From positions 1-31,647 of the IMG/VR virus record IMGVR_UViG_3300004241_000037: a stretch of DNA of 31,647 nucleotides; one strand, written 5' to 3'. The DNA is from a virus. Its lineage: Duplodnaviria; Caudoviricetes. Positions 2,638 through 27,782 of the stretch are shown one piece after another. The position numbers and the translations under genes are program-made. Positions within the stretch are counted from its first letter, which is position 1. Each line of letters begins with the position of its first letter. The notes under the pieces were generated by a model that saw nothing but the letters and a program-made list of their open reading frames with translations, did no database searches and was not told the origin of the DNA.

Positions 2638-4332
2638 TTAGATCATTTCTATGCAGACATAGGTCCGGCCTGCGCCAGTTTCTATGTCAGCCTGGGCAGC
2701 GGGGGCTGGCCCAGTATTAGCCTGGACGTAAATATCTATCGTGTCTTCTGCTGCTAATAGGGCAGTGGTTGATATGTTCATGGTCCGTCTACGCTCATCA
2801 CCTTCACTCTGCGCTCGGCAGAGATCAGCCCCATTCTTGTATATGAACAAATAGCATGGACAGTCAACCACATCATCCAGGGCTACCTGGGCTGTTATAC
2901 GGTAATAGCTGGCTACTGGAGCTGTAAAAGTAGACGTAGCGAAATTGCTACCAATGTCATATTCTTCAGTACCGAATACCACTTTGGTCGGCGTAGCATC
3001 AGTTATGTCGGTCTGTTCGCTACTGGAATATGCCCTGCATTTAGCTACAGTAGATGTTGCATTGCTACCCCAGGATACTGAGTCAACTGCCGAGATCGCT
3101 CCGAACGCTTTGTAGTCACCGTCAATATCAAAGATGTGCCGGGTGGTGGCATTGTTCCTCAGGACAAGGAGGTTTGCATCTGCACCACAGTCAGTCACTC
3201 CGGTGCTACCATCCGTGTAGTAAGCTGCCATCTCAAATACGCCACGGCCAGAGGTTGTCTTTGTGGTTCCCAATGATCCAGCAGCATAAGCACCAAACTG
3301 AAAAGTGATAGCTGATTCAGAAAAAGCCCGGATATCCAATCCCCCGGTAGTAGCAGCGGCTTTACGGAATGATCCGTAGGTATCTGCTTCCGCATAGTCA
3401 GTAAAGGATTGAGCTACATCAGATGATTTGCAGGCCAGTATCTCATCATCAGAGGCCTTCTGATCAATGGTCAATCCTCTGGTCATCTTGGCATTGCCAG
3501 ACATTGAGCCGATAGTGAGTATGCCGTTATCAATACAGAGAGAGGAATCACCACCCTGGCCATACAACCTATGGTTTACGGTAGTGCTGTTATTACCTTT
3601 GTATACCTGGATTGAGGTATCTCCGGAGGTCTCTGTTGACCTGAAGATCCTGAAGATCACTTCATCAGTAGCCTCTCCGGGCATAGCATTGATATTCACA
3701 TAGGCGGTCCCGGTATCTCCTGAACCGTAGAAGGCAGCAGCAATGGTGTCGTACGTCACTTCCAAAGGATACTGCGTAGGTACTTTGTTTATGCCTACCC
3801 TGTTCTCAGAAGCATCTACGAAAAAGGTGTCAGTATCCACGAAGAAGTCATAGGCCCCAACTGCTACCGCAGCACCAAACTCCACCTGATCTGAGGCGTT
3901 CACCTTGAGGATGTTGACCGTGTCATCCCCGGCGTTGTTCAGCCCGAGCAGGTATCCGTCATTCAAGAGCTTGATACCGAGATTGTCTATGAACTTGCTG
4001 TCCGTACCATCATGGTCATGCCCAACAGTCGTGGACGTGATCGCAGTATCCAGGTCTGTCCAGAGACTAGACACCGGGTTCATGGTGACGGCACATCCGG
4101 CGCTATGTGCGCCAGCCGAGGTAGACCCGACCCCTCTGGTCTCAAGCGTACAGGTAGTACCTGCGATGCTTGATACCTTGACGATCTCTCGGAGGGTAGC
4201 ATCAGTCGCATCCAGTACCAGGTAGCAAGGATAGCTGGTTGGCGCTGCCACCAGTACCATGCTGTTCGCCCCGGCTGTGATCCCACTACTGAGGGTAGTG
4301 GAGAAAAAATCTTCAATGTGGTTGATTGCCAT
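2638..4332 (-). CDS. Tail fibre / receptor-binding protein with C-terminal C1q-like domain
   Basis: 564 aa. Beta-rich fibre motifs (FFVDASENRVGINK); C-terminus [33 protein letters not shown]...IYKNG matches the C1q signature; follows the nozzle gene. Confidence 0.8.
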   Translation of the reverse strand: MAINHIEDFFSTTLSSGITAGANSMVLVAAPTSYPCYLVLDATDATLREIVKVSSIAGTTCTLETRGVGSTSAGAHSAGCAVTMNPVSSLWTDLDTAITSTTVGHDHDGTDSKFIDNLGIKLLNDGYLLGLNNAGDDTVNILKVNASDQVEFGAAVAVGAYDFFVDTDTFFVDASENRVGINKVPTQYPLEVTYDTIAAAFYGSGDTGTAYVNINAMPGEATDEVIFRIFRSTETSGDTSIQVYKGNNSTTVNHRLYGQGGDSSLCIDNGILTIGSMSGNAKMTRGLTIDQKASDDEILACKSSDVAQSFTDYAEADTYGSFRKAAATTGGLDIRAFSESAITFQFGAYAAGSLGTTKTTSGRGVFEMAAYYTDGSTGVTDCGADANLLVLRNNATTRHIFDIDGDYKAFGAISAVDSVSWGSNATSTVAKCRAYSSSEQTDITDATPTKVVFGTEEYDIGSNFATSTFTAPVASYYRITAQVALDDVVDCPCYLFIYKNGADLCRAQSEGDERRRTMNISTTALLAAEDTIDIYVQANTGPAPAAQADIETGAGRTYVCIEMI

Positions 4333-6149
4333 TATTCCCCTCCAAAAGTTAGGTCTTTATCAAACGCTCGTTGGTTGCGGTGTCTGTACCAGAAGCCCAT
4401 ACCCAGGAAGTCAAAGTGTTCTCCGTTGGCTACGTTCGCCAGCTTGATCTGGCAGGTACGCCCTACATATCCTCGGCTGATCCTCATGCGTATTGATTCC
4501 TCAGTGGTAGTCTGCGTTCCGGAGCTGTACCCTATCATGTCCACGCCTATCATGGATACACCGATACCAGCTACACCGACCTGTCCACCTACACTATATA
4601 CCATGCTGTCTCTCAGCACACCATCTGTGTAAATATCTATCGTCAGGTCACCGAGTACATTCTGCAGGTATACGTCTATGAACCGCCAAAGTTTGGCAGT
4701 AATGTATTCTGAAATATGGTACTGCTTGGTTAGGATCCATGACTCAATCCGAGTACCGTTGTCGCTATACGTTGAATCAAAAACGTGCATCTGCCCACTG
4801 TTCGTACCGAATATCAGGTGTTCTGCTCCACCAGTATCCTGTACGATCTTCATGCAGGTAGCATTGAAGCCACTCATCGGGAACAGCCCGAGGTACTGCA
4901 GGTCATAGAAGACGGCACGGTTGTTATAGGTCGTGGTGGGGTAGCACAGGTAGTAGCCGTTGTGTGCTACCTGGGCATAGGCCAGATGTACGTTCGGTGC
5001 GGAGATAGCATCCAGCTTGTCCTTTACTCGTTCGCTGATATTGTCTATCCGCATCTTCTCCAGCATGTTCGGCTCCATGCCGAGAGAACAGATCTTGAAT
5101 CCACCCTGCCCATCCCGGGCCAGGAAGAAGATGTTGTTCTCAGTAGACACGATTGACTTGGTAGCACAGGAACCTATCTGCTCACGCACGGTCTTTGGCA
5201 CCATGTAGGTCGTGGTGCTGGTAACCTCAATCGTGATGCTGGCTATCTTGTCTTCTTTGAAGACGAACAGGTTATCGTTCATGATGGCGAAGCCTATGAT
5301 GTCGTCACCATCCTGAGCGTAAATATCTATGAACCCCCCACCGGCTGCGACCGTGAACTCATCCCCACCGGAAGCAGAGTAATATAGGCGGCTCCCAACG
5401 CTAGCCCATATCCTGTTCTTCCAGAAATACAAGTGATCAAAAATGGGAGGATACCGAGTATAGCTGGCGTAGATACCTTTACCAGTGGCGGGTGCGGCAT
5501 TGAAGGTAACCTCGTAAACACCAGTGGTGTAATTGATCGTACCTGAGCCTCCAGCGTCACCAGTCAGTGTACCATCGCCATTGTCGCTGAAGGTCTCCAC
5601 GTCATCAGCGATCTCTAACGTGTCTGCTTTCAGTATGGGAGCCGCCAACGTACTTCCAAAAGTCTTGGTCACTGCATCGCCAGTAGCGATCAGCTCGTCC
5701 ACTACGTCCTCAGTCAAGTCAGCACCGGCAGTCTCATTGAGCTTCTGTGGCTTGTCTACGCCATTACAGAAGTAGATATGATTGAATGCCTGGATCAGGT
5801 CACAAGGACCGGAGGTCAGGCCGGAGAGTATCTCTGTACCCCAGCTCGTATCGCTGTAGGCTTTGACATAGACCTTAGCCCCAGCTACGCACATCAGTTT
5901 ATCTACGGTCTCAGTTTTGAAATGGATGATCTCATGGATCGGATCAGTCCCCAGGTCATTGCCATTGGCTGTATATCCACGCCTGGTACGCAGTCTACCC
6001 TCAGCTTCCGGTATCACGTTCAGGCAGTCAGACAGTTCATCATCCTTGATCTCAATCGGATTGGAATTGGAATGAGCGCCGAGGGTCATCTTGGAGAAAC
6101 CCTTGTGCATCAAGTTCTTGAATACTTGGATTTGCTCATACCTGGGCAT
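4332..6149 (-). CDS. Tail nozzle / tail tubular protein B (P22 gp10 / T7 gp12-like beta-propeller)
   Basis: 605 aa; N-terminal DCLNVIPEAEGRLRTRRG, propeller-like motifs (IYFCNGVDKPQK, FWKNRIWA, LYYS, LFVFKEDKI); located between the adaptor and fibre genes. Confidence 0.75.
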   Translation of the reverse strand: MPRYEQIQVFKNLMHKGFSKMTLGAHSNSNPIEIKDDELSDCLNVIPEAEGRLRTRRGYTANGNDLGTDPIHEIIHFKTETVDKLMCVAGAKVYVKAYSDTSWGTEILSGLTSGPCDLIQAFNHIYFCNGVDKPQKLNETAGADLTEDVVDELIATGDAVTKTFGSTLAAPILKADTLEIADDVETFSDNGDGTLTGDAGGSGTINYTTGVYEVTFNAAPATGKGIYASYTRYPPIFDHLYFWKNRIWASVGSRLYYSASGGDEFTVAAGGGFIDIYAQDGDDIIGFAIMNDNLFVFKEDKIASITIEVTSTTTYMVPKTVREQIGSCATKSIVSTENNIFFLARDGQGGFKICSLGMEPNMLEKMRIDNISERVKDKLDAISAPNVHLAYAQVAHNGYYLCYPTTTYNNRAVFYDLQYLGLFPMSGFNATCMKIVQDTGGAEHLIFGTNSGQMHVFDSTYSDNGTRIESWILTKQYHISEYITAKLWRFIDVYLQNVLGDLTIDIYTDGVLRDSMVYSVGGQVGVAGIGVSMIGVDMIGYSSGTQTTTEESIRMRISRGYVGRTCQIKLANVANGEHFDFLGMGFWYRHRNQRAFDKDLTFGGE

Positions 6150-6808
6150 TAGTAGTTGTCCCTGTAATCTTCAGCTTGAGTTGCATCTGTGTAGGGGATG
6201 AACCTGTCCGAAGCCTTGTACCCGGAGACACCATTGGTGCGATCCCAGGATACCAGGCGTTTCATACCATCCGAGTATTCCTTCAGGTATTCTTCTTTGA
6301 CCGGATCATCTTCCTTCCGGGTCGCTAGATAGCAGACAAAGGTAGGAATGATGTCATGGAATACCGTAGGGAATAAAGGTGAATCCGTGTCCTCATCCAT
6401 CTCCGGAGGTGAGAACAGGTAGATCATACTCAGGTTGTTCGTACCATCTGCCGAAGGAGTCTCCAGCAAATGCAGGTAGCGGTCACCCTGGTCAGTACCC
6501 AGGACGTAGAAGTAATGCCCACCTGATTCGTAGAACGGCACTTCATGGTAATTGATACCCAGGAAGGTGTCGCCATCTACCTTGACTTCCTTGATCAGAA
6601 GGCAGTCATCCGGCAGCTTGTACGCAGTAACCCCTGTCTGGAGGCTGATCGTCTTGGTAACGGTCATCCAGTTCCAGTCGTTCCTGCCACGGATGATCTT
6701 GCGGTAAACGCCATTGCACCAGTTGTTGAGCTGGGCAGTAGTACGGAAACCGGTGATCGTCTCACCGATGTAGTCCGTTATGAAAGTTCTCATTTCTTGC
6801 AAGTTCAT
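6149..6808 (-). CDS. Head-to-tail adaptor (tail tubular protein A-like)
   Basis: 219 aa; MNLQEMRTFI...WNWM...YKLPDDCL...DTDSPLFPTVFHDII pattern typical of podoviral adaptors; position upstream of the nozzle. Confidence 0.75.
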   Translation of the reverse strand: MNLQEMRTFITDYIGETITGFRTTAQLNNWCNGVYRKIIRGRNDWNWMTVTKTISLQTGVTAYKLPDDCLLIKEVKVDGDTFLGINYHEVPFYESGGHYFYVLGTDQGDRYLHLLETPSADGTNNLSMIYLFSPPEMDEDTDSPLFPTVFHDIIPTFVCYLATRKEDDPVKEEYLKEYSDGMKRLVSWDRTNGVSGYKASDRFIPYTDATQAEDYRDNY

Positions 6809-7141: not shown

Positions 7142-7563
7142 GACTTGCTGATCTCCGTAGGTGAATCTACTACTGTCCGGGTAGTAACGACCGTTGTACC
7201 ATCCTCACGGTATAGCGTCTCTACCTTTGAAATCTTATTGAAATGGTACTTGCCTTTGGCAAAGGCCACCATAGCTTCCCCCATAGATCCGGCCACGGCA
7301 GAGTACTGTGTCTGGTCTCCATCATTGCAGCCCATCCGGTAGCGTTCAATAGTAGCCAGACCAGCCCCACCGTCAGCTATGAAGGTGTAGGGAACAGACG
7401 GATCGTATGTGGTGAAGTCGTACTTGTAGAACCCTTCCCCTACTTCCGTCATGTTGGCAGCGTCCACGATCTTCGTACTGGTATTCAAACTCCAGACTGA
7501 GATAGTGGGAACCAGGCCGGTAGCCGGTGAGCCTTCGTCTGTGAAGAATGCTGAGAGTATCAT
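7138..7563 (-). CDS. Hypothetical beta-sandwich virion protein
   Basis: Start moved to ATG 7563 (AAAGGAG RBS, ATGA overlap with the stop of the 971-aa gene); 141 aa, Thr/Val-rich, MTEVGEGFYKYDF motif. Confidence 0.6.
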   Translation of the reverse strand: MILSAFFTDEGSPATGLVPTISVWSLNTSTKIVDAANMTEVGEGFYKYDFTTYDPSVPYTFIADGGAGLATIERYRMGCNDGDQTQYSAVAGSMGEAMVAFAKGKYHFNKISKVETLYREDGTTVVTTRTVVDSPTEISKS

Positions 7564-10475
7564 TGCTTCTCCTTTACCCATGATTTGAGGAAGTGGTGCT
7601 TGACTATCGTGTTCTCTGTGACCTTCTCCGTATTCGCCTGGTGATCATACGGATAGAAATAGTCAGGGCTGAGCAGCTTGAAGTCATCCATCTTGAAACC
7701 CAGTTCGTGGTATCCCTTGGTCAGTACTTCCATTGAGGATTCAAAGTTCTTCTCGTCATCGCCCCGAAAGTTCTGCACCACATGGTCTATCCAATCCTTG
7801 ATGAACGGCTGGCCCTTGCAGGCCCCGAACACCGCAGAACCTATGAAGCCATTGTTCTCTGTGGCTGCGAACATCCCATGCTTGAGCAGTTCATCAAAGT
7901 TCTTCCCGGGCAGGATCTCCACGTCCGCATCCAAGTATATTCCACCTTCATTGTAAATGTAATACATCCGCAGATAGTCAGACATCTTCACCCACTTATT
8001 GTGGCGGTCTGAAGCCATAGCCTGCTGCATGTAGGGACAATCCCGGAAGGCGTTGTCATCAGTGATCAGGACATGTTCGTACCCCGGGATCTTCTGGCTT
8101 TCTATGCAACGCTTGACCAGCTCAGGCATCTCATTGCCAAGCCAGATAGTGAAGATACGTTTCGGGATACGCTGTACCCAGGGGAAGTTTTCCTTGAAGG
8201 CGAACCCCAGCTTCTCAGCACGTTCCTTGTAAAGCGCATGGTCATGAGCTACACGATCAGCTTTGTAGGCCAGGGTGTAGACCGGGTCTAGCTGTTCCTT
8301 GAAGCCGTCCTGTATCGGATGGTCATGGAAAACCTCAGCTTCTTCGGCCCAAGTGTAGGCATTCATCAGCTTGCAGCGTTCAGTCAGCTCATTGTCACAA
8401 CCGGTATGGTAGTACCCGGTGTGGAAGAACTCACCATCCAGGGCAGGGAGCAATGCCTTACCTGCCAGCCAGTGCGTAGCAAACTCGCCTTTCCAGTAGC
8501 CGTCATTCAGGCCGATGAGTCCTTTGTAGTCAGGGTACTCACGGATCATACGGAAGACGGCCTTCTGCAGGAAGTCCTTCCGGGGCATACAGTCATTACC
8601 CAGGTACATGACCAGCTCGCCCTTGGCTTCCTCTACCATCTGCTTCACCAGCTTGGGAACGCCAGTATTGTTTGGAGGGAACTGATCGTGCTTGACTATG
8701 ATCTCGTAGTTATCGTACCCAGCATTCTCCTTGATCAGCTTGAGCAGTCTACGGAACTTATCACCTCTGCCCAGGGTAGGGATGATGATACTGACCAGTG
8801 GCTTCTGCACGTATTTGTGCCAGATCGTATCAGCTACGCCGTCTATCGTACCGAAGGATTCATCCACTGCATCCTGTACCCCCATCCAGATCGTGTCCTT
8901 GTAGTCATGCCCACTGATTATCAGCTTGGCTTTATCACGCCAGAGGGCTATGTCTTCCAGCACACCTTCCTTGGTATGGGTTGCGTCAATGAAGATCATG
9001 TCAAACTTCTGGCCCTTCAGCTTCTCGGCAGCTTCCTTGGAAGTCATCTTCATGATCTCCAGGTTCGGGAAGTGGCCTACGTTTTGCTTGAACTTTTCAT
9101 ACACTCCCATCGGGATACCCTGCTGATAGGTCCAGTCACCCGGAACTGGAGTACCTTCAAACGTATCCACTGCGATCACTTTGCCTTTGCAGCCTGAGAG
9201 CAGGGCATGGGTAGAGCGACCACACCAGCTTCCGATCTCCACGATGGAGGTCATCTTCTTGGCAGTTTCAAATAGCCAGGTCAATTCAGGGAAGGTCATC
9301 CAACCCTCAATGCCCTGGTCCGGGTACTCAAAATAGTACTTGGTATCATGGAGGTACCGGTTACTGTTGAAGCAGTATTCTAATGCTTTCGTCAAATGCT
9401 CACGCCCACCGTCCACATCACCCATCCAACCTCTTGCCCAGTACAGGACTTCATGCGGGGCTGAGGTGTAATAATACAGATCGTTCATGTACAAATTATC
9501 CCAGGGGAGCTGGAGTGCAGCTCCGGCATAGGCAGCAGCGTGGTGCTTATCATCCCTGGCCTTGTAAACAAAGGCCAGTTTCATCAAGGCTTCACGCCGT
9601 GTGCCATCCAAAGCGAAGGCTTTCAGGTACCATTCAATCTGTTTACCCTGGTCTTTCAGCATACCGTAGCAGTCACCGATGAAGATCATGGACTGCGCTC
9701 TCTCGGCTGGCCAGCGGTCCATAGCGATATGCCGTTCAAACTCTTTGATGGCAGACTTGGGCCTGCCAGACCAAAGCAGCTCCCGAGCCAGGTAGTGGGA
9801 ATTGCGGTCATTGTCCGGGTGTGAGAAACAATCCAGGGCCAACCCAGCCAGGTACCGCTTTCGTTCCGGCTTGTCTTCCTGGAAGTGTTCTATCTTGAAT
9901 CTGTCTTCCGGAAGGAAGGTACGCTTGGCTTCGCCTTGCAGTACCTCATGTATGATCCCTTCCCAGTGCAGCTTGCGCCTGTCGTAGAACTTGCACTGCA
10001 TAAACTTGATGGACTCGTTCCCTAATCCGTCATGGGCAAAGACAAAGTTGAACTCCAGTTGTTCAAAGCCCTGGGCGATCACATCCTGGACATAGTCTAC
10101 ATCCAGTCGGGTGAAGATCTCATCGCAGTCTGGCATGGACACCATGTCATTTGAAGCGAGTGACGCTGCGTGGTTCCGGGCAGCAGCATAGTTGAAAAAG
10201 GTATCACCTTCATTCACGATCAAAGCTTCATCTCCTACCACGAACCGTTCATTGATAGCCTTGACCTGTTCCGGGGTCATCTTCTCCGTGTACTTGTCCC
10301 CGACTCTAGTTACTTTACAACCGAGGTTGGTAGCGATCTGCACGGTATCGTCAGTGCTGCCGGTATCCAGGACGATGATCTCACCGCCTCTGGCTTTGAA
10401 GTCAGCCAAGCTGTTGACCAGCTTTGGCAATGTTGTCGCCTCGTTCTTGGCGATCACGACTACGGAGAAGTTCAT
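7560..10475 (-). CDS. Multidomain glycosyltransferase: GT2 + TPR + SAM methyltransferase (Methyltransf_24-like) + GT2 + GT32/DXD-type
   Basis: Motifs in order: SVVVIAKNE/DTGSTD/DCDE; TPR-like helices (YLAREL...AIKEFERHI, YLKAFALDGTRREAL); VEIGSWCGRST/FIDATH/GHDY; VSIIIPTLGR/YLGNDC; RIPKRIFTIWLG/SDYLRM..IYNEGGIYLDADVE/HHFLKSW. Confidence 0.88.
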   Translation of the reverse strand: MNFSVVVIAKNEATTLPKLVNSLADFKARGGEIIVLDTGSTDDTVQIATNLGCKVTRVGDKYTEKMTPEQVKAINERFVVGDEALIVNEGDTFFNYAAARNHAASLASNDMVSMPDCDEIFTRLDVDYVQDVIAQGFEQLEFNFVFAHDGLGNESIKFMQCKFYDRRKLHWEGIIHEVLQGEAKRTFLPEDRFKIEHFQEDKPERKRYLAGLALDCFSHPDNDRNSHYLARELLWSGRPKSAIKEFERHIAMDRWPAERAQSMIFIGDCYGMLKDQGKQIEWYLKAFALDGTRREALMKLAFVYKARDDKHHAAAYAGAALQLPWDNLYMNDLYYYTSAPHEVLYWARGWMGDVDGGREHLTKALEYCFNSNRYLHDTKYYFEYPDQGIEGWMTFPELTWLFETAKKMTSIVEIGSWCGRSTHALLSGCKGKVIAVDTFEGTPVPGDWTYQQGIPMGVYEKFKQNVGHFPNLEIMKMTSKEAAEKLKGQKFDMIFIDATHTKEGVLEDIALWRDKAKLIISGHDYKDTIWMGVQDAVDESFGTIDGVADTIWHKYVQKPLVSIIIPTLGRGDKFRRLLKLIKENAGYDNYEIIVKHDQFPPNNTGVPKLVKQMVEEAKGELVMYLGNDCMPRKDFLQKAVFRMIREYPDYKGLIGLNDGYWKGEFATHWLAGKALLPALDGEFFHTGYYHTGCDNELTERCKLMNAYTWAEEAEVFHDHPIQDGFKEQLDPVYTLAYKADRVAHDHALYKERAEKLGFAFKENFPWVQRIPKRIFTIWLGNEMPELVKRCIESQKIPGYEHVLITDDNAFRDCPYMQQAMASDRHNKWVKMSDYLRMYYIYNEGGIYLDADVEILPGKNFDELLKHGMFAATENNGFIGSAVFGACKGQPFIKDWIDHVVQNFRGDDEKNFESSMEVLTKGYHELGFKMDDFKLLSPDYFYPYDHQANTEKVTENTIVKHHFLKSWVKEKQ

Positions 10476-10494
10476 ACCAAACCCTCATAAATAA

Positions 10495-12078
10495 TTAGAT
10501 CTGTTCAATACAGACAAATGTACGTCCTGCCCCTGATTCAATATCTGCCACATTGCCGGTCGTGTTAGCCTGTGCGTATATCTCTATCGTATTTGTTGCT
10601 TCAAGATACGCAGTATAGGCTATGTTCATGGTCATTCTTCTTTCAGTAGTAATGCCTTGCGCTCTTGCTAATTCAACTCCGTTTTTATAAATCCAAATAT
10701 AACAAGGGAACGTACCAACATCATCCCATGCTACCTGAGCCGTGATCCTATAGTAGCCTGTTGACGGAACGGTATAGGTAGACGTGGCAAAGTCTGCCCC
10801 TGTATCGTAGTTCTCTGTACCGAACACTACCTTAGTCGGTGTACTCGCAGTGATGTCTGTTTGTTCACTTGAGGCATAGGCACTAAGTTTTTCAAGAGTA
10901 GCAGGGGCCGGACCAGTATAGCCGGTGTAGCCCGAGTACCCTGTATACCCAGTTGCAAATGCCCCGGTATACCCAGTGTAGCCTGTCCTCCCTGTATAGC
11001 CTGTATAACCAGTAGGTCCAGTAACAGTAGAAACAGGCCCGGTGTATCCTGTATAGCCAGTCACCTGCGGTCCTGTGTACCCGGTATACCCAGTCCTGCC
11101 GGTATACCCTGTCGCCCCTGTCGGGCCAGTAACCGTGCTTGCTGCTCCGGTATAGCCTGTATATCCGGTTGCTCCGGCAGCACCGCCTGCCCCAGTATAG
11201 CCTGTGTATCCAGTCCTTCCTGTGTACCCAGTCGGGCCGGTGACTGTACTGGCGGCTCCACCTGCTCCAGTGTATCCGGTATACCCTGTTCTTCCAGTGT
11301 ACCCAGTAGCGCCTGTCGGCCCGGTGACGGTGGAAGCAGGGCCAGTGTACCCAGTGTATCCTGTGGTACCAGTTGGGCCAGTGACCGTGCTATTCGCACC
11401 TGTATATCCTGTATAGCCTGTGACTTGCGATCCAGTGTAGCCGGTATAGCCGGTAGCACCAGTAGGTCCAGTTACGGTGGACGCTGCCCCAGTGTAACCT
11501 GTATATCCAGTAGCCCCGGTAGGGCCTGTCACTGTACTCGCCGATCCAGTATACCCAGTGTACCCGGTCCTACCGGTATACCCAGTAGGTCCGGTCACGG
11601 TTGAAGCGGGGCCTGTATAGCCCGAGTATCCTGTATATCCAGTCGCACCTATTGGCCCAGTAGGGCCGGTGACAGCGCTGGCTGCGCCGGTGTAACCTGT
11701 GTACCCTGTTCTCCCTGTATATCCAGTCGGACCAGTGACGGTAGACGCGGGACCAGTGTACCCTGAGTAACCGGTATACCCAGTAGCCCCAGTGAAGCCG
11801 GTTGGCCCGGTAACGGTAGAGGCTGCTCCTGTATAGCCAGTGTATCCAGAGTAACCAGTCGCACCGATAGGGCCGGTTACGGTACTGGCAGCACCAGTGT
11901 ATCCGGTGTACCCGGAGTAGCCAGTGTAGCCGGTGACCGTACTGACTGGTCCTGTATACCCGGTGTAGCCACTATACCCGGTGTACCCTGTTGCTCCTGC
12001 TCCTGTGTATCCTGTATACCCGGTTGCCCCCTGATCACCCGGGACTGAGAACGGGCTGCGATCTAGTAGTATGCTCAT
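10495..12078 (-). CDS. Collagen-like fibre (Gly-Tyr-Thr repeats) with C-terminal C1q-like domain
   Basis: 527 aa; about 375 aa of interrupted G-X-T triplets followed by a C1q domain paralogous to that of 2638-4332. Confidence 0.88.
10910..12030 (-). repeat. Degenerate 9-bp (GGN TAY ACN) coding repeats punctuated by GxxS(T/A)VT units
   Basis: About 48 GYT and 6 GYS triplets and 13 GxxS(T/A)VT interruptions counted by eye; third codon positions heavily varied. Confidence 0.9.
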
Positions 12079-12727
12079 CTTCCATCGCCTTTCTCATGGC
12101 TAGATAATCCAGGGGCGTATAGATGTACGATCCTATATGCCCTACCTGTATGGATGGATCTAGCCAGACTTTGAAGCCAGCTTCTTTCGCCTTCACGCAG
12201 AAGGTCGTATCTTCTCCCAGCATGTACCCATCTTTGTACTTTCGGTATTCAAACCAGGGTTCCTTCATCTTCTCAAACACCCTGCGGTGTACCATCATGA
12301 AACCTGTCCCCAGAAAATCTACCTCTGTCATCTTGTCCTCATCCCACTTGCCGATACCCTGAACCTTCCACTTGGTCTTGGCATTGCAGTATCCAGGGGT
12401 CGGATGATACGGTGGCTTGCGTTTGACATAAAGGCCACCTACGATGTCCAGCTTGTGGTCCCAGAGCTTCTGAATGTCTTCCGGCTCGTAAACCATATCA
12501 GCGTCAATCCACATGAGGTAGTCACATCCATCACGAGCGAGAAAGTTCTTGACGATCTCATTGCGTGAGTAATGGACGAGACAGGACTGAAAATAATTGG
12601 TAATGATCACATACGGTGGCCTGCTGTTCATCAGCTTCTGAAGTGAAGCTACCCATTCAAGGGGAAGATCCTTGTATACAGGACAACCAATAAACAACTG
12701 TGGTGTTTTCTGGGGTTCGGTTTCCAT
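12035..12727 (-). CDS. GT-A fold (GT2-like) glycosyltransferase
   Basis: 230 aa; [21 protein letters not shown] (DxD), [29 protein letters not shown]. Confidence 0.85.
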
Positions 12728-13098: not shown

Positions 13099-14268
13099 TT
13101 ATGCAGAGTAGGAAGTAACGCCGTAGAGCCGTGCATGGGCTTTCTCAACGTTCACTTCAAGACCAGCCTCAGTCAGATACTCGTCAATGACCTGATCATC
13201 ACCCGGGGTCTGGATGTTTGTGATCAGCTTGGTATCCCGGTTGCTGAGAGGACGATACTTCACATAGTCCAGATCCAGCAGGAGAGCCTGGCCACCATAG
13301 GTGGCACCTTCCAGCAGGTTGTGACGGACTACGATGACTTCACCATGTGCCGAGAGATACTGCATGGCAGCGATGCCATAGGTCTTATCTTTCGGGAACA
13401 TCTGAAGTTTTGCCTTGGCCCAGTAATTGATGGCCGAGATCACCTTGGAAGATGCGAACAGGACTTTCTTGGTAGAGCCATAGGCGAACCCGGTCTCCAG
13501 GAAATCCTCAAACTCAGACTCGGTCAGAGTGCCGGAAGCATCTTTGAGGTTGGTGGTGATCCAGTAGAGCAGCCCACCGGTATACCGTTTGGGATGAGTA
13601 CCACTGGTATCAATCGCACGTTCTCCAAAGAGCAAGGCTCTCTCAATATCCACACGATGCTCCAGCATGTGTTTCTTCCGTTCGTAGTCCAGGCCCTTGC
13701 CACCATAGGTGTCAGAGTTGGCATACGTCTCGGTCACACCGAAGGGAGTGCGGATGATCTGAGTGTAGTTGTACTTCTCGTCCAGGGCGGTCGTCAGGAT
13801 ACCACGCTTGCTTGCGCCTTCAGCGTTGGCATTGCCGATGATGACCAGCGGTCCGTTGTCCGGAATGGTCGCAGCAGCCGTACCACCGGAATCTCCGATG
13901 GAACGAGTGATGGACAGGGTGGAAGTCGTGGCAGTGATCGCCGTGACTTCAACCACTTCGGCGGTGCTGGGGATCTTCACAATGTCACCGACACGGAAGT
14001 AGCCAACGTTGTCTACGACAACGGTAGCGCTACCGGCGGTAACGGTTCCGTTAGCCTGATCCCATCTCGGGGTCATGCTATCTTCAAGCCACTGGAACTT
14101 GGGGTTCGTGGCTGCTTTCTTCTGCGCCCGGGCAGTAAGAACGGTGAGAGGGGAACGGTTGCCCTTCTCATCATCAATCTGATAGATGATGTCAGAGACA
14201 TCAATCTTCATACTCAGCGCATTGGTGCTGGTATTGGTAGAGTTTTTGATCGTTGCAATGGTTGCCAT
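13099..14268 (-). CDS. Major capsid protein (SU10 / DUF5309-type, HK97 fold)
   Basis: 389 aa; KFQWLED, YNYTQIIRTPFGVT, DIERALLFG, YTGGL, EAGLEVNVEKAHA; follows the scaffold gene and is followed by a terminator. Confidence 0.88.
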   Translation of the reverse strand: MATIATIKNSTNTSTNALSMKIDVSDIIYQIDDEKGNRSPLTVLTARAQKKAATNPKFQWLEDSMTPRWDQANGTVTAGSATVVVDNVGYFRVGDIVKIPSTAEVVEVTAITATTSTLSITRSIGDSGGTAAATIPDNGPLVIIGNANAEGASKRGILTTALDEKYNYTQIIRTPFGVTETYANSDTYGGKGLDYERKKHMLEHRVDIERALLFGERAIDTSGTHPKRYTGGLLYWITTNLKDASGTLTESEFEDFLETGFAYGSTKKVLFASSKVISAINYWAKAKLQMFPKDKTYGIAAMQYLSAHGEVIVVRHNLLEGATYGGQALLLDLDYVKYRPLSNRDTKLITNIQTPGDDQVIDEYLTEAGLEVNVEKAHARLYGVTSYSA

Positions 14269-20742: not shown

Positions 20743-21420
20743 CTATTTGATATAGACCGTACACTTGCCCCAGCCATCAGGGTTACGCTTCAGTCCCTTG
20801 CCGGGCATGTTCAGATAGTTGTTGTTCACCTGCGCCTGTCTCATGTCCCTGGTCAGTTCATGGTGCTGGTGGATCAGCCAGGCCCGGGGCCGGGCATCCA
20901 TCAGATGGTAGCCACTCTCCAGCGCTCTCCGGCGTATGTCTTCATCCTCACTGCCCCAGCCCTTGAAGTTCTCATCATAGCCCTGGACCGAGTTCAGCCA
21001 GTGACGGTTGAAGCAGAGGCAGCACGGCCTGTTCCCCACCTTGTACTCTTTCCCATCAGAGTCCAGGTAGGAAGGCGAACACCCGATCAGAGTCTTCGGG
21101 TCATCGGTCACTGCCCTCAGGTAAGTCTCCATCAGGTTCTCACTGAAGATCATATCTATCCCGCAGGTCATCACCCACTCTGTCTTCGCCCGCCGTATCC
21201 CGATGTTGTTGGCATGGCTGATATTGAAAAGGGGTTGGGCATTGCCCACGATCACCAGGTCATCCTTGAACATCCGGCGTTCCCATTCCAGGTTCTCCGG
21301 CCTGCTCCCATAATCCACCACGATCAGCTTGCAGGGTATCGTCTGTGCTATTACACTGGTATAGAAATTACCGGCCAGCGTTACCGGACGGTCCTTGATA
21401 CTTACTACGCAGGTGAGCAT
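20743..21420 (-). CDS. GT2/GT7C-type glycosyltransferase
   Basis: From ATG 21420 (alternative 21432): VVSIKDR, VVDYGS, FNISHANNIG, GYDENFKGWGSEDEDIRRR, IHQHH. The upstream extension to 21597 is antisense to the next gene and is not GT-like. Confidence 0.85.
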   Translation of the reverse strand: MLTCVVSIKDRPVTLAGNFYTSVIAQTIPCKLIVVDYGSRPENLEWERRMFKDDLVIVGNAQPLFNISHANNIGIRRAKTEWVMTCGIDMIFSENLMETYLRAVTDDPKTLIGCSPSYLDSDGKEYKVGNRPCCLCFNRHWLNSVQGYDENFKGWGSEDEDIRRRALESGYHLMDARPRAWLIHQHHELTRDMRQAQVNNNYLNMPGKGLKRNPDGWGKCTVYIK

Positions 21421-22204
21421 GGGTGTACGCATTGTCGCCGGGTTCGGCTTCCGATACGATAAGGAATTGGTGGAGGACTGTGTAGCCAATCTCTCTCCCT
21501 GGGTTGATGACTTCGCTATCCTAGATGATACCAAGCATGACCGCCTCTGGCGTAATGAGTCTGAGTACCGGTACCTGATCCGTAACCTTGCTATCAAAAA
21601 AAAGGCTGACTATCTTCTCATCACTTCACCTGATGAACGGTGGGAGAAAAACGCTGGTACCATTATAAGACAAGCCATTGAATTTGAACAGCATCCCAAA
21701 CGTCCTCTCACCCGGAAAGAGTTCTTCCTGAAGTACCACACCTACTATCTCCCACCCGCTGAGTTCAAGTACCCCGGCTCTGAGTTCTTCTACAATAACC
21801 CCAATATCATCTACACCTTTGATCTCCGGGAGTTATGGACTCCACGCACATATCGCATAGACGGCATCTGGGGGAAAAAGAAACGGCCCCGCCTCTTTGC
21901 CATCAAGCCCGGCCAGGTCTTTGATAAGTCTCCCATCCAGTGCAAGTCCTACCCCATAAACGCTGGCTATACCTTCTGCCATCTCCCGGTCAATATCTAC
22001 CACCTCAAGATGATCAACCCCTCCAACAGAAAATTGCGGGCTGAGGTTTTCACGAAACTTGACCCCAACCTCAAGTATCAGTCCATCGGATATGATTACC
22101 TTTTTGATGAAACAGGTCTACAATTAGAGCAGATCCCCAAAGGCAGAGGCTACTCGCCCCGCTATAAGGAGTACACATTTACCGTACCAAAGGAGTACCT
22201 ATGA
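21419..22204 (+). CDS. GT-A-like glycosyltransferase (divergent)
   Basis: RIVAGFGFRY...LSPWVDDFAILDD...ADYLLITSPDERW...IYHLK; DxD position reads SPDE; ATGA coupling to the nitroreductase. Confidence 0.65.
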   Translation: MGVRIVAGFGFRYDKELVEDCVANLSPWVDDFAILDDTKHDRLWRNESEYRYLIRNLAIKKKADYLLITSPDERWEKNAGTIIRQAIEFEQHPKRPLTRKEFFLKYHTYYLPPAEFKYPGSEFFYNNPNIIYTFDLRELWTPRTYRIDGIWGKKKRPRLFAIKPGQVFDKSPIQCKSYPINAGYTFCHLPVNIYHLKMINPSNRKLRAEVFTKLDPNLKYQSIGYDYLFDETGLQLEQIPKGRGYSPRYKEYTFTVPKEYL

Positions 22205-22743
22205 GTGCCGATCCCTTCCAGGACGCCTACCTCTTACACCAAGCCAGAAAGAAGGAACAGTTGCTTCACTATAAAGAAGACGCTTTCCACTTCCTTGCTA
22301 CCTCCCGCCACTCAGACCGCATCTTCAAGCCAGATCCCATCTCCCCTGAGCTTCTACGCAAACTCAATGCTCTCATGCCCCTCGCCCCTTCCTCCTGTAA
22401 CCGTCACGCTATGACCGTCTCTGAGATCAAAGGTGATCACATCCCACCTCTCGCTTCCCTCCTGGTCGGAGGCAAGAACTGGCTGGACTATGCTCCCCTC
22501 GTCTTCCTCATCTTCGCTCACCCTGAAGCCTACAAAGCACCAGGCGAACTCTCCTTCATGCCCTACCTGGACGGCGGCTTCCTCGCCATGCACATCCTCT
22601 ACTCTGCCCATTCCCTCAATCTCGCCTCCTGCTTCTGTAACCCCAACATCCGGCCAGAAGATCTCCCCATCTTCAATCCTTCCTATAATAGTAATGCCCT
22701 CATCTTCACCGGGGCCATAGCCATCGGCTACCCCTTCCCCTAA
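22201..22743 (+). CDS. Nitroreductase family flavoprotein
   Basis: SRHSDRIF, LAPSSCNRH, YLDGGFLAMHILYSAHSLNLASCF, AIAIGYP are the canonical nitroreductase motifs. Confidence 0.88.
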   Translation: MSADPFQDAYLLHQARKKEQLLHYKEDAFHFLATSRHSDRIFKPDPISPELLRKLNALMPLAPSSCNRHAMTVSEIKGDHIPPLASLLVGGKNWLDYAPLVFLIFAHPEAYKAPGELSFMPYLDGGFLAMHILYSAHSLNLASCFCNPNIRPEDLPIFNPSYNSNALIFTGAIAIGYPFP

Positions 22744-22849
22744 CCTAGTGACGTATTCCTCCCATCTTGTCTCAGCACGGATTCTTACGCCATCCTGAGA
22801 GGCCTGGACATACCAACTACTGTCCTTATCCTCAGCTAATCCGGGGATC

Positions 22850-23280
22850 CTTTACCCTTTTTACCCCTTTTTGCTCCCTACACGTCTGTAGCAATGAGAT
22901 GGGTTTATATTATGTCACTACTACTATTACTCACCAACCCTCCCCACTGGGTACCACGCTACCCCTACTCTTGCTTACACTATCTCTGCTTCTACTACCT
23001 ACACACTACTACTCTACACACACATACTACCTACCTACTAACTGACTACTATACAATAAATACAATTCCTTCTTTTACTCCCGACTACTTTACTCTCTAC
23101 TTACTTACTATCTTTCTACTATACAATTTCTCTTACGCTTTTACTTTCTTACTTTACTAGCTACTGCTATCTCACATTACTACTTTACCCTACTTTACTC
23201 TCTCTCTCTTTACTACCTTACTACTTCCTTTTATCTGTCTAGTTACTTTACACTTTCTTTCTTTCCTTTTTACTCAACCA
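22850..23280. repeat. Low-complexity, G-depleted (TAC/TACT/CT-rich) non-coding tract
   Basis: Only 8 G counted in the 300 nt 22981-23280 on the plus strand; many TACT/CTAC words; ORFs over it are low-complexity. Confidence 0.9.
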
Positions 23281-23399
23281 TATCTCAGTAGCAATATGCT
23301 ACAGCGCTATACGCGTTATGATATCAGAAGAATTGCATAGAAACCCACCTCACTTTAAGCGCTAGCGCCAATACAGTATAGCCATTCATTTCTTTTGAC

Positions 23400-23420
23400 C
23401 ATTTTCTTAGTAAGAAAATG
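23400..23420. promoter_or_regulatory. Perfect 10-bp inverted repeat (candidate operator)
   Basis: CATTTTCTTA-G-TAAGAAAATG, abutting a TTGACC hexamer at 23395-23400. Confidence 0.55.
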
Positions 23421-25901: not shown

Positions 25902-26267
25902 ATGTCCTATCCACAGTTTGAAGATCTCAAGGTCTGGCAGAAAACCCGCAACCTGGTGGTTGCTACTGCCGATGTGCTGACTAAGTCATCCATGCGAGAC
26001 ACCATTCCCTGTAAGGTGATCCTGCGTGACTCGCTCTCTATCCTGAACAACATAGCCAAAGGCTATGAGGCTAGAGAAAACAAATCGTTCCCTCGTTACC
26101 TCACCGCTGCCCGTGGTTACGCTGGTGAGTTCAGATCCTGCCTGTATGTACTGGCTGACCTGAACATCATCACCCCGGAACAACGTGAGGTCATGGATCA
26201 GGAAGCCCGTGACATCGCCAAGATGTTAGGCGGTCTCATCAAACATCTGACCTCTCCCGACTGTTGA
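25902..26267 (+). CDS. Four-helix bundle protein (23S rRNA IVP / TIGR02436 family, Avd-related fold)
   Basis: FEDLKVWQK...SILNNIAKGY...RYLTAARG...MLGGLIKHL matches the family pattern. Confidence 0.85.
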   Translation: MSYPQFEDLKVWQKTRNLVVATADVLTKSSMRDTIPCKVILRDSLSILNNIAKGYEARENKSFPRYLTAARGYAGEFRSCLYVLADLNIITPEQREVMDQEARDIAKMLGGLIKHLTSPDC

Positions 26268-26803: not shown

Positions 26804-26976
26804 TCACAGCAACCTGTCCCTTCTGTCATCAGCCTATGTCTGATGCTGAAGTCAAACGCTCAATCAAACTCAGCGTTGGTATGTGTGACCAATGCTGGTC
26901 AGGTCAGGGTACGGAAGTCGGAGACTTCAACCCGGACCTCATCACTGATCAAACCATTACCGGGGATCAATCATGA
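26800..26976 (+). CDS. Small zinc-finger protein
   Basis: Below the ORF-track cutoff; 58 aa MITATCPFCHQ...MCDQCWSG; ATGA coupling at both ends. Confidence 0.65.
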   Translation: MITATCPFCHQPMSDAEVKRSIKLSVGMCDQCWSGQGTEVGDFNPDLITDQTITGDQS

Positions 26977-27782
26977 ACACTGATAAAATCACCCAAGCCC
27001 TGCTGGATAAACTCCGGCAGGGTCAGATACCCTGGCACAAGACGTGGGATTGTGACTACCAGAACGGTGTCACTCACCACGAGTACCAGGGCATCAACGT
27101 CCTGCTACTCGCCTTCTCTCGGCAAGATCATCCCTACTGGTACACCTTCAATCAGGTACGCCAGCTCGGGGGATCGGTGAAGAAAGGCGAACATGCTACC
27201 ACCATTGTCCACTACAAACTGGTGGACAAGAAGGACAAAGAGGGTAAGGTCATTGGCAAGTACCCCATGTTCTCAGCCTGGGCTGTGTTCAACCACAACC
27301 AGACCACACTACCAGACACGAAGGTGGAAGCCCCACCTATCCAGTCAGTAGGTGAGATCCTCACTCAGTACATCGGATGTCCACCATTCGTGGATGGCAC
27401 ATACTGTGCATACAATCCGGTGAAGGATGAACTCATCATGCCCAAGGCGAAATACTTTGACCATCCTGAAGACTATGCTCAGGCATTGTTCCATGAACTG
27501 ACGCATAGCACTGGTCACAAGTCACGGCTTGACCGTAACCTTGAGGATCGTAGCAACTATTCCTTTGAGGAACTGGTTGCCGAGATGGGCGCATGCTTCC
27601 TTGGTCACAAGGCTGGCACTGCTGCCCCTACCATAGACAATACCGTTGCCTACCTGCAGGGTTGGCTGAAACGTCTGGGTGATAACCCGGACTGGATCAT
27701 CAAGGCTGCAGCCAAGGCTCGTGTTGCTACCAACTACATACTTGGAAAGGAGAAACATGAAGCACGCTGTGCTGCTGCCTAA
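26973..27782 (+). CDS. ardC: ArdC-family ssDNA-binding anti-restriction protein with zincin-like domain
   Basis: IPWHKTW, YQGINVLLL, WYTFNQVRQLGGSVKKGEH, VFN, LFHELTHSTGHKSRLDR, YSFEELVAEMGA, AYLQGWL. Confidence 0.92.
   Translation: MNTDKITQALLDKLRQGQIPWHKTWDCDYQNGVTHHEYQGINVLLLAFSRQDHPYWYTFNQVRQLGGSVKKGEHATTIVHYKLVDKKDKEGKVIGKYPMFSAWAVFNHNQTTLPDTKVEAPPIQSVGEILTQYIGCPPFVDGTYCAYNPVKDELIMPKAKYFDHPEDYAQALFHELTHSTGHKSRLDRNLEDRSNYSFEELVAEMGACFLGHKAGTAAPTIDNTVAYLQGWLKRLGDNPDWIIKAAAKARVATNYILGKEKHEARCAAA

Follow-up and report, generated by a model that had tools for sequence, protein, structure and literature searches.

The late genes of an uncultured, podovirus-like freshwater phage appear to encode both a collagen-like fibre and the enzyme that glycosylates it. 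In the 31,647-nucleotide stretch of the IMG/VR record IMGVR_UViG_3300004241_000037 analysed here (the window), the gene for a five-domain protein of 971 amino acids (aa) adjoins that of a 527-aa fibre rich in Gly-Tyr-Thr (GYT) triplets. We estimate a probability of roughly two in three that the 971-aa protein is a cytoplasmic O-glycosylation enzyme whose N-terminal part, a family 2 glycosyltransferase (GT2) followed by tetratricopeptide repeats (TPR), primes the Y-position Thr of the neighbouring GYT collagen. That fibre and enzyme co-occur across many different phages makes it likely that the enzyme glycosylates the fibre. A sequence-only reading of the window had placed three open reading frames (ORFs), for a GT-A enzyme, a collagen fibre and the 971-aa protein, in the structural operon between capsid and adaptor genes. 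They were found there, on the minus strand, and the capsid and adaptor genes are SU10-type (Table 1).

Co-occurrence was tested in both directions. The forward test looked for collagens in the fetched flanks of 169 related GT2-TPR loci, with the window's own contig left out. GYT collagen was found beside 103 loci, on the same strand in 102 of the 103 and within 4 kb in 97, at a median gap of 1.5 kb. After clustering at 70% identity, GYT was present in 26 of the 35 clusters whose flanks were long enough. Six of the nine negative clusters carry GYT elsewhere on the record (L003, L017, L035, L045, L007 and L170), and another, L168, has a GPT collagen instead. For the reverse test, a sample of the collection was scanned for GYT with a 10-letter protein motif, which gave 117 distinct contigs; 21 named GVMAG were left out. 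Of the other 96 GYT records, 65 were searched over their whole length for GT2-TPR, and 100 records with a charged GPKGDKGD collagen, drawn from 126 loci, served as the control. Over all records, the enzyme was detected in 30 of 65 GYT records and 4 of 100 controls; three positive controls of one control batch also carry Gly-X-Thr collagens. Among records at least 50% complete, the counts were 19/21 (one of the 19 a partial match at a contig edge) and 1/47. At 90% completeness or above, all 11 GYT records and none of 22 controls had the enzyme (Fisher p = 5e-9). It had been suggested that homologous fibres commonly lacking glycosyltransferases would speak against a glycosylation system; near-complete tailed-phage-type records do not show this. 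Sequences from two of the 11 complete records and from two control loci were included in the GT2-TPR profile, but the 11 match E-values were all 1e-113 or lower, and so this overlap is immaterial. A version of the reverse test confined to 10 kb (7/58 with a narrow hidden Markov model, 9/58 with a broader one) was superseded, since whole-record searches showed that it understated the link.

Complete carrier records range from 40 to 317 kb, and among the related loci the window's capsid protein has a match in only 1, and its terminase in 6; the carriers are therefore different phages. Enzyme clades track the collagen repeat type. In a FastTree phylogeny of 139 GT2-TPR domains, the window's clade has 83 tips, 48 of them GYT, 3 GPT/GAT and 32 unlabelled, with a support of only 0.37 at its base and 0.9 for 79 of its 83 tips. 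The sister clade (45 tips, support 0.99) has 23 GPT/GAT and no GYT, and a third clade of 11 tips is mixed, with 4 and 4. Among 72 distant homologues, mostly from gut Firmicutes, 25 lie directly beside a Gly-X-Thr (GPT/GAT) collagen and none beside GYT. When GPT-collagen loci were examined, a distant GT2-TPR was found within 10 kb in 20 of 70, and in the cultured Actinomycetia phage DSL-LC01, two GPT collagens lie three genes upstream of the GT2-TPR. Some loci hold two GT2-TPR copies (L022, L033, L021, L145, L094, L073 and L118). Giant-virus GT2 proteins are among the top fold matches of the 971-aa enzyme, and GYT collagens also occur on the GVMAG contigs L243, L250, L266, L267, L281, L282, L289 and L298. 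One locus (L170:8170-12068; JAUIDC010000001.1) has a GYT fibre, a LamG-like virion protein, a GT2-TPR-GT2b enzyme (GT2b being a second GT2-like domain) and a holin within a 936-kb bacterial contig. This contig reads TGA as Gly, and CGA/CGG stand at three positions where Trp would be expected, a pattern that we take to resemble the Absconditabacterales codon code. The locus is likely a prophage of a candidate phyla radiation bacterium, which gives a host hint for one member.

Several observations weigh against fibre glycosylation by this enzyme. Because the carriers are related by descent and probably by habitat, the p-values overstate independence. In one 93%-complete record (L067/G172), GT2-TPR-methyltransferase is present with no GYT match, while the 80%-complete provirus G113 and the 52%-complete record G088 have GYT without the enzyme. 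Altogether, 35 of the 65 GYT records were enzyme-negative, mostly fragments, and only one of eight GVMAG contigs had a GT2-TPR within 10 kb. No Gly-X-Thr collagen was found among 6 and 10 neighbour genes, respectively, of the distant GT2-TPRs of the phages PaBG and Y3, and the wider GT2-TPR family must therefore have other substrates. On the fibre side, 40 of 45 end segments had no Pfam match, and a particle anchor is not recognisable in the 13-aa N-terminus. PaBG and Y3 were dropped as cultured models, given their distant enzymes and the lack of a neighbouring Gly-X-Thr collagen. The accessible text of the PaBG paper does not discuss its GT2-TPR. Such a distant GT2-TPR is conserved among the structural genes of cultured jumbo phages of Erwinia, Dickeya and Pseudomonas (L679 PaBG, L680 Y3; 69 phage records), where it is annotated as a lipooligosaccharide (LOS) glucosyltransferase and may be a protein glycosyltransferase. 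In L067:6247-10409, GT2-TPR-methyltransferase is followed by LicD-like, cytidylyltransferase-like, glycerol-3-phosphate-dehydrogenase-like and GT2 ORFs (labelled by eye) upstream of terminase, possibly for phosphoglycerol decoration of another substrate.

The five domains that had been read from the 971-aa sequence were recovered by Pfam, by an AlphaFold2 model and by structural alignment. Pfam matched GT2 (PF00535), TPR weakly, Methyltransf_24 at residues 412-517 and PF04488/PF05704 at 766-871. The mean predicted local distance difference test score (pLDDT) of the model was 90.4. In structural alignment (VIA), residues 1-303 matched SunS (Z 22.4, root-mean-square deviation 2.2 over 259 residues), the next segment matched TPR proteins, and residues 379-559, 556-765 and 766-961 matched MeT1 (Z 21.8), PcManGT (Z 16.1) and Och1 (Z 16.7). 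Catalytic-type motifs were located at residues 116 (DCDE), 175 (IHE), 412 (VEIGSWCG), 626 (GNDC) and 844 (GGIYLDADV). Across 52 diverse homologues, the residues of D116-x-D118 and H176-E177 are invariant except for D118, which is kept in at least 90%.

Fold and profile comparisons suggest that the N-terminal GT2-TPR is closest to protein- and peptide-modifying enzymes, in agreement with the sequence-only reading. Residues 1-303 have their best fold and profile matches in SunS/ThuS and Listeria GmaR (7msp, 7msk, 22ao). SunS/ThuS occupied ranks 1-6 in Foldseek. In a search of the PDB with a 52-sequence profile, which returned many plain TPR matches besides glycosyltransferases, the best glycosyltransferase matches were GmaR (E = 1e-31), SunS (6e-29) and ThuS (entry 7msk; 1e-24). 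GmaR, which has O-linked N-acetylglucosamine (O-GlcNAc) activity on flagellin, shares the motifs KNE, DTGSTD, AARN, DxDE and IHE with the phage enzyme in alignment. Identity to SunS is about 14-17%, and neither a bacteriocin precursor nor flagellin is encoded nearby. The enzyme shares the SunS fold but is not a member of TIGR04195, the SunS-family peptide S-glycosyltransferases, for which it scored 15.2 bits against a cutoff of 350.

The C-terminal domain is GT32-like, with 39.9 bits for PF04488 (cutoff 23) as well as the Och1 match. Profile comparison brought it closer to YeGT and PaTox (E = 2e-12 and 8e-12) than to Och1 (1e-6), whereas by structure these tyrosine-glycosylating enzymes scored 15.8 against 16.7 for Och1, a tie. 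YeGT and PaTox are the only other GT32 structures (PMC12312940), and this likeness to Tyr-modifying enzymes probably arises because so few exist. A Tyr-modifying role for GT32 was set aside for that reason, for the structural tie and for the domain's presence in only 46 of 107 loci. The methyltransferase fold is nearest MeT1 and other small-molecule O-methyltransferases; PHROG 2675, labelled DNA methyltransferase, also matched this domain (E = 8e-22).

A search gave 527 homologues of the 971-aa protein. The best 120 comprised 26 architectures, among them the exact five-domain order (16), GT2-TPR-methyltransferase-GT2b (41) and an order in which GT32 and GT2b have changed places (13). Of the 107 related loci that extend at least 4 kb downstream, 101 have GT2b, 54 the methyltransferase and 46 GT32; GT2-TPR and GT2b therefore make up the core, and the remainder is swappable. 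A fixed sequence of priming, two extensions and capping, as had been proposed, is unreadable from a gene whose domain order is shuffled in relatives and whose methyltransferase and GT32 are optional. GT2b was found in 14 of 20 GYT records having GT2-TPR, including all 11 complete ones, and in none of 20 GPT-collagen records, 4 of them complete, although the GT2b profile was built from the GYT clade and the pattern may reflect descent rather than a need of Tyr chemistry. The flanking 230-aa GT-A enzyme, which had been assigned a part in the same system, does not hold up as a core partner: of 169 related loci, a single one has a homologue, and no relative turned up when viral sequences were scanned with the GT-A as query. 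From these searches it appears to be an accessory.

The fibre has 106 Gly-X-Y triplets, 48 of which are GYT, 11 GPT and 9 GAT. Thr or Ser is at Y in 82 of the 106, and none of the triplets contains Lys or Glu. A Gly-Tyr-Thr collagen had been read from the sequence, and the GYT triplets bear this out. The repeat is heavily interrupted, being broken into 18 runs of 3-11 triplets, and contains 12 STVT linkers. Nine of the 18 runs have 6-11 triplets and so reach the six triplets asked of prokaryotic and viral collagen-like proteins, and relatives have uninterrupted runs of up to 87. The PF01391 score was 96 bits (cutoff 27). The fibre is also as hydroxyl-rich as had been claimed, with 106 Thr, 54 Tyr and 21 Ser in residues 14-393 (47.6% together) and 5.5% Pro. 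Composition alone would give 6.4 occurrences of G-x-T-G and the fibre has 77; the repeat is therefore beyond chance.

A C1q/TNF jelly roll is predicted for the final 131 residues (model pLDDT 69.8, TM about 0.5). The tail protein encoded at 2638-4332 ends in a head (2638-3042) with 66% identity to this one, suggesting internal duplication or a domain swap. When three copies of residues 327-527 were modelled, the predicted trimer scored 0.91 against 0.00 for the best of three controls. In calibration, 21 of 30 solved pairs had passed the required mark and none of 23 monomers had. The score may express likeness to solved C1q trimers and not binding. The runs agreed in at least 93% of contacts with a pLDDT of at least 83, and there were contacts along the repeat. 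The fibre is likely displayed on the particle, given its operon position, the head shared with a tail protein, and the tail-fibre domains Mtd_N and Peptidase_S74 on relatives (2 of 45 scanned end segments of GYT collagens).

The closest known system is the SgtA-BclA3 pair of Clostridioides difficile. The accessible text of PMC7157674 describes SgtA as a 358-aa GT+TPR protein, encoded just upstream of bclA3, that, when given collagen-repeat peptides in vitro, attaches beta-O-GlcNAc to their Thr and Ser. Both systems have a GT-A domain followed by TPRs in a soluble, DxD-type enzyme whose gene adjoins that of a Gly-X-Thr collagen. In the window, GT2 is followed by TPRs, the collagen gene is 19 nucleotides (nt) away, and D116-C-D118 and H176-E177 are intact. 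This likeness is one of layout and neighbourhood; the sequence kinship observed is to uncharacterised Firmicutes GT2-TPRs (23-30% identity). The phage pair differs in belonging to a structural operon instead of a spore and in having Tyr at X instead of Pro; its collagen is interrupted and carries a C1q head in place of the membrane helices of BclA3, and its enzyme has three further catalytic domains fused to it. Enzymes that extend the BclA3 glycan were not found in the SgtA study, as far as its accessible text goes (PMC7157674). The Bacillus anthracis BclA analogy drawn in the sequence-only reading thus has a closer form, a proven GT-TPR and collagen pair. The exosporium nap of B. anthracis remains similar in form: the C-terminal domain of BclA is C1q/TNF-like, and the protein has a short N-terminus, a Thr-rich collagen stalk and a trimer head of that fold. 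Its stalk is glycosylated according to the portion of PMC8968730 available. Unlike BclA, the fibre is viral and GYT-rich and shares its cassette with the enzymes.

By analogy with SgtA-BclA3, the TPRs would grip the fibre repeat and the GT2 would transfer a first sugar from a host nucleotide sugar to Y-position Thr/Ser. Since the proteins have no membrane segment, the reaction would take place in the cytoplasm with nucleotide sugars of the host; scans of the window ORFs (30 with Pfam, 42 with PHROGs) matched no gene for sugar synthesis. GT2b would perform the next step that GYT fibres always need, either a second sugar or modification of Tyr. GT32 and the methyltransferase could be exchangeable additions, differing from phage to phage, that extend the glycan and O-methylate it. 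The fibre is predicted to form a homotrimer through its C1q head, its stalk being a triple helix.

The sugar probably serves, first of all, to stabilise this Pro-poor and nearly uncharged triple helix. In the available part of PMC11923368, (Gly-Pro-Thr)10 is a coil until its Thr is galactosylated, and KGD is the commonest stabiliser of viral collagens. With 5.5% Pro and no Lys or Glu, the fibre has neither of the means, proline and salt bridges, by which other viral collagens are stabilised; Thr glycosylation is a known replacement for them. That this fibre lacks both, and that salt-bridged control collagens are without the enzyme, fits a structural role. A role in folding and stability is, by this analogy, probably at least as well grounded as the mimicry, shielding or adhesion proposed before, which would be added effects. 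A bolder version is unlikely, namely that GYT phages bear a doubly glycosylated bottle-brush collagen, with GT2-TPR acting on Thr and GT2b as a new cytoplasmic tyrosine O-glycosyltransferase, in which the sugar is needed for fibre folding and shuffled GT32/methyltransferase domains set a phage-specific glycan serotype.

Other targets were considered for the enzymes. They could mainly glycosylate capsid or shell proteins as in mycobacteriophages, with the fibre as a neighbour or minor target. The 230-aa GT-A, whose gene is the second behind that of the capsid, might take this part. Mycobacterium phages are reported to bear glycans on capsid and tail tube (as cited in the accessible text of PMC12619734), PaBG and Y3 have GT2-TPRs among structural genes without collagen, and L067 has the enzyme without GYT. 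However, G-x-T-G, which abounds in the fibre, does not occur in the capsid, portal, adaptor or 605-aa tail protein, and the enzyme accompanies the fibre across different capsid types, which makes this alternative rather improbable. A virion-wide G-x-T-G motif was likewise dropped; among the other structural proteins compared, it occurs in the 564-aa tail protein, twice against 0.5 expected.

A fibre that is glycosylated without being part of the virion, acting as a decoy during infection or as a host-surface or matrix protein, has a slightly smaller chance. Its N-terminus is very short with no recognisable anchor, and its gene lies between capsid and adaptor genes, not among tail genes. It has no hydrophobic segment to act as a signal or membrane anchor (maximum KD19 0.73), however, and its late-operon position, the C1q head shared with a tail protein and the Mtd_N and S74 domains on some relatives all speak for the particle.

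It is very doubtful that the glycosyltransferases alter host lipopolysaccharide (LPS), capsule or S-layer to mask a receptor, in serotype conversion or superinfection exclusion. The late-operon position, a TPR-bearing fold of protein-modifying enzymes and the absence of a membrane segment do not suit such a role, which would also leave the 11/11 versus 0/22 result unexplained, even though there are matches to Caps_synth (PF05704) in the GT32 domain and, weakly, to a GtrB-like PHROG at the N-terminus, and one relative has LicD-like and cytidylyltransferase-like genes (translations read by eye). We give as little credence to a monomeric fibre in no need of a glycan, its Gly-X-X runs doubling back into a polyproline-II helical bundle that has Tyr on one face and Thr on another, while the enzymes serve otherwise. 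Short runs with regular linkers recall polyproline-II-bundle proteins, and the fibre's runs are mostly 5-7 triplets with regular STVT linkers; against this stand the C1q head and predicted three-chain stalk, the long uninterrupted runs of relatives, and the co-occurrence, which such a fold does not explain. Least probable is glycosylation of phage DNA against restriction, which is the usual annotation for phage glycosyltransferases in the accessible text of PMC10202952 and PMC12619734 and would suit the PHROG 2675 label, but the methyltransferase fold points to small-molecule O-methylation and no base-hydroxylating or nucleotide-modifying gene was matched in the 30 ORFs (Pfam) and 42 ORFs (PHROGs) scanned, with about 6 kb of the ~40-kb genome outside view.

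Two further systems resemble an enzyme that glycosylates the fibre. A064R of chlorovirus PBCV-1 is a soluble protein that joins GTs and an O-methyltransferase and finishes the virion glycan, according to the available text of PMC9614988. The phage enzyme is likewise a virus-encoded soluble multi-domain GT/O-methyltransferase protein, a likeness by description, as A064R was not among the listed fold matches. A064R belongs to a eukaryotic virus, serves an N-glycan on the capsid and lacks a TPR priming domain, as far as that text describes. Mycobacterium phages are also tailed phages that target the particle, glycosylating capsid and tail tube with their own GTs (as cited in the accessible text of PMC12619734 and PMC10955285). 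Their glycans are described there at the C-termini of capsid and tail-tube proteins, whereas the putative acceptor here is a dedicated fibre whose repeat offers about 100 potential Thr sites. Already known, then, by analogy, would be SgtA-BclA3-like priming, A064R-like finishing and phage virion glycosylation in mycobacteriophages; what is added here is a family of five-domain fusions, a reciprocal test with a control, a GT2b that is close to obligatory, and the argument from folding. A literature search that covered main texts, with few subscription papers, found none that describes GT2-TPR together with GYT collagens in phages.

The locus points to a widespread, self-contained route by which small tailed phages could acquire a dense particle glycan. 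The records suggest two alternative stabilisers of viral collagens: charged Lys-Gly-Asp repeats without an enzyme, or Thr-rich repeats with one. A single soluble polypeptide with its likely substrate makes it testable whether Thr glycosylation precedes and drives triple-helix folding, an open matter in the collagen literature as represented by the available part of PMC11923368. The enzyme may supply the chain-extending activities not found for C. difficile BclA3 and may give new GT modules for glyco-engineering of collagen biomaterials. The findings also suggest that many phage GTs annotated for DNA or LPS act on virion proteins.

The window covers most of a ~40-kb podovirus-like phage, with a terminase, SU10-type portal, capsid and adaptor, and 605-aa and 564-aa tail proteins. 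A relative (L083) has long ORFs after the tail proteins, read as ejection proteins. The order of the late operon is capsid, 116 aa, GT-A (230 aa), fibre (527 aa), 971 aa, 147 aa, 107 aa and adaptor. Packing is tight, with a 42-nt overlap between GT-A and fibre, a 19-nt gap between the fibre and 971-aa genes, and a 20-nt overlap between the latter and the next gene. An identical 971-aa gene is on a 40,098-base contig. The stretch is present in freshwater metagenome runs, and none of the runs listed is an RNA run. Contigs from three public runs had zero differing letters over the locus; two of these runs may be where the window comes from, and in the third the stretch is spread over five pieces, with small holes.

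Table 1. Features of the proposed fibre-glycosylation locus and its context, in window coordinates
Feature	Coordinates	Strand	Remarks
Single-domain GT-A, 230 aa	12035..12727	-	phage-specific Anp1/GT2-like family, phrog_1574; DxD at 75-77, GED motif at 171; putative accessory
Collagen-like fibre, 527 aa	10495..12078	-	13-aa N-terminus, interrupted GYT-rich repeat, C1q head; PF01391 E 8e-28; tail fibre PHROGs
Fibre repeat region, residues 14-393	10900..12039	-	18 runs of 3-11 Gly-X-Y triplets; putative acceptor
Fibre C1q/TNF-fold head, residues 397-527	10498..10890	-	predicted trimerisation domain
Five-domain protein, 971 aa	7560..10475	-	without hydrophobic membrane segment
GT2 + TPR, residues 1-385	9321..10475	-	SunS/GmaR/SgtA type; putative priming enzyme
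Class I S-adenosylmethionine O-methyltransferase, residues 388-556	8808..9314	-	nearest MeT1; optional in relatives
Second GT2-like domain (GT2b), residues 557-765	8181..8807	-	NDC replaces DxD; near-obligate in GYT phages
GT32-like DxD domain, residues 768-968	7572..8174	-	optional in relatives
SU10-type major capsid protein (context)	13099..14268	-	PF17236, E 6.5e-53
SU10-type adaptor (context)	6149..6808	-	PF24175, E 1.4e-16
564-aa tail protein with fibre-like C1q head (context)	2638..4332	-	
Separate GT2/GT7C-like gene, head of late genes	20743..21597	-	possible further sugar transferase; Pfam, PHROG scans

Three features go beyond the sequence-only reading: the interrupted collagen, the C1q/TNF head and the further GT2-like gene at 20743-21597. 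The last belongs to a sugar-related spot (20743-22743), where it is divergent from a 269-aa orphan (21395-22204, plus strand) that is followed by a nitroreductase (22201-22743, plus strand). The orphan ORF is unsupported as a glycosyltransferase, with an hhalign probability of 2%. Between the divergent gene blocks lies a low-complexity stretch with a strong C/T skew (22750-23400), including short tandem repeats at 22992-23034, which is possibly an origin or control region. In the early region, Pfam identified an ArdC-like anti-restriction protein (26973-27782) and a four-helix-bundle protein of the 23S rRNA IVP family (25902-26267).

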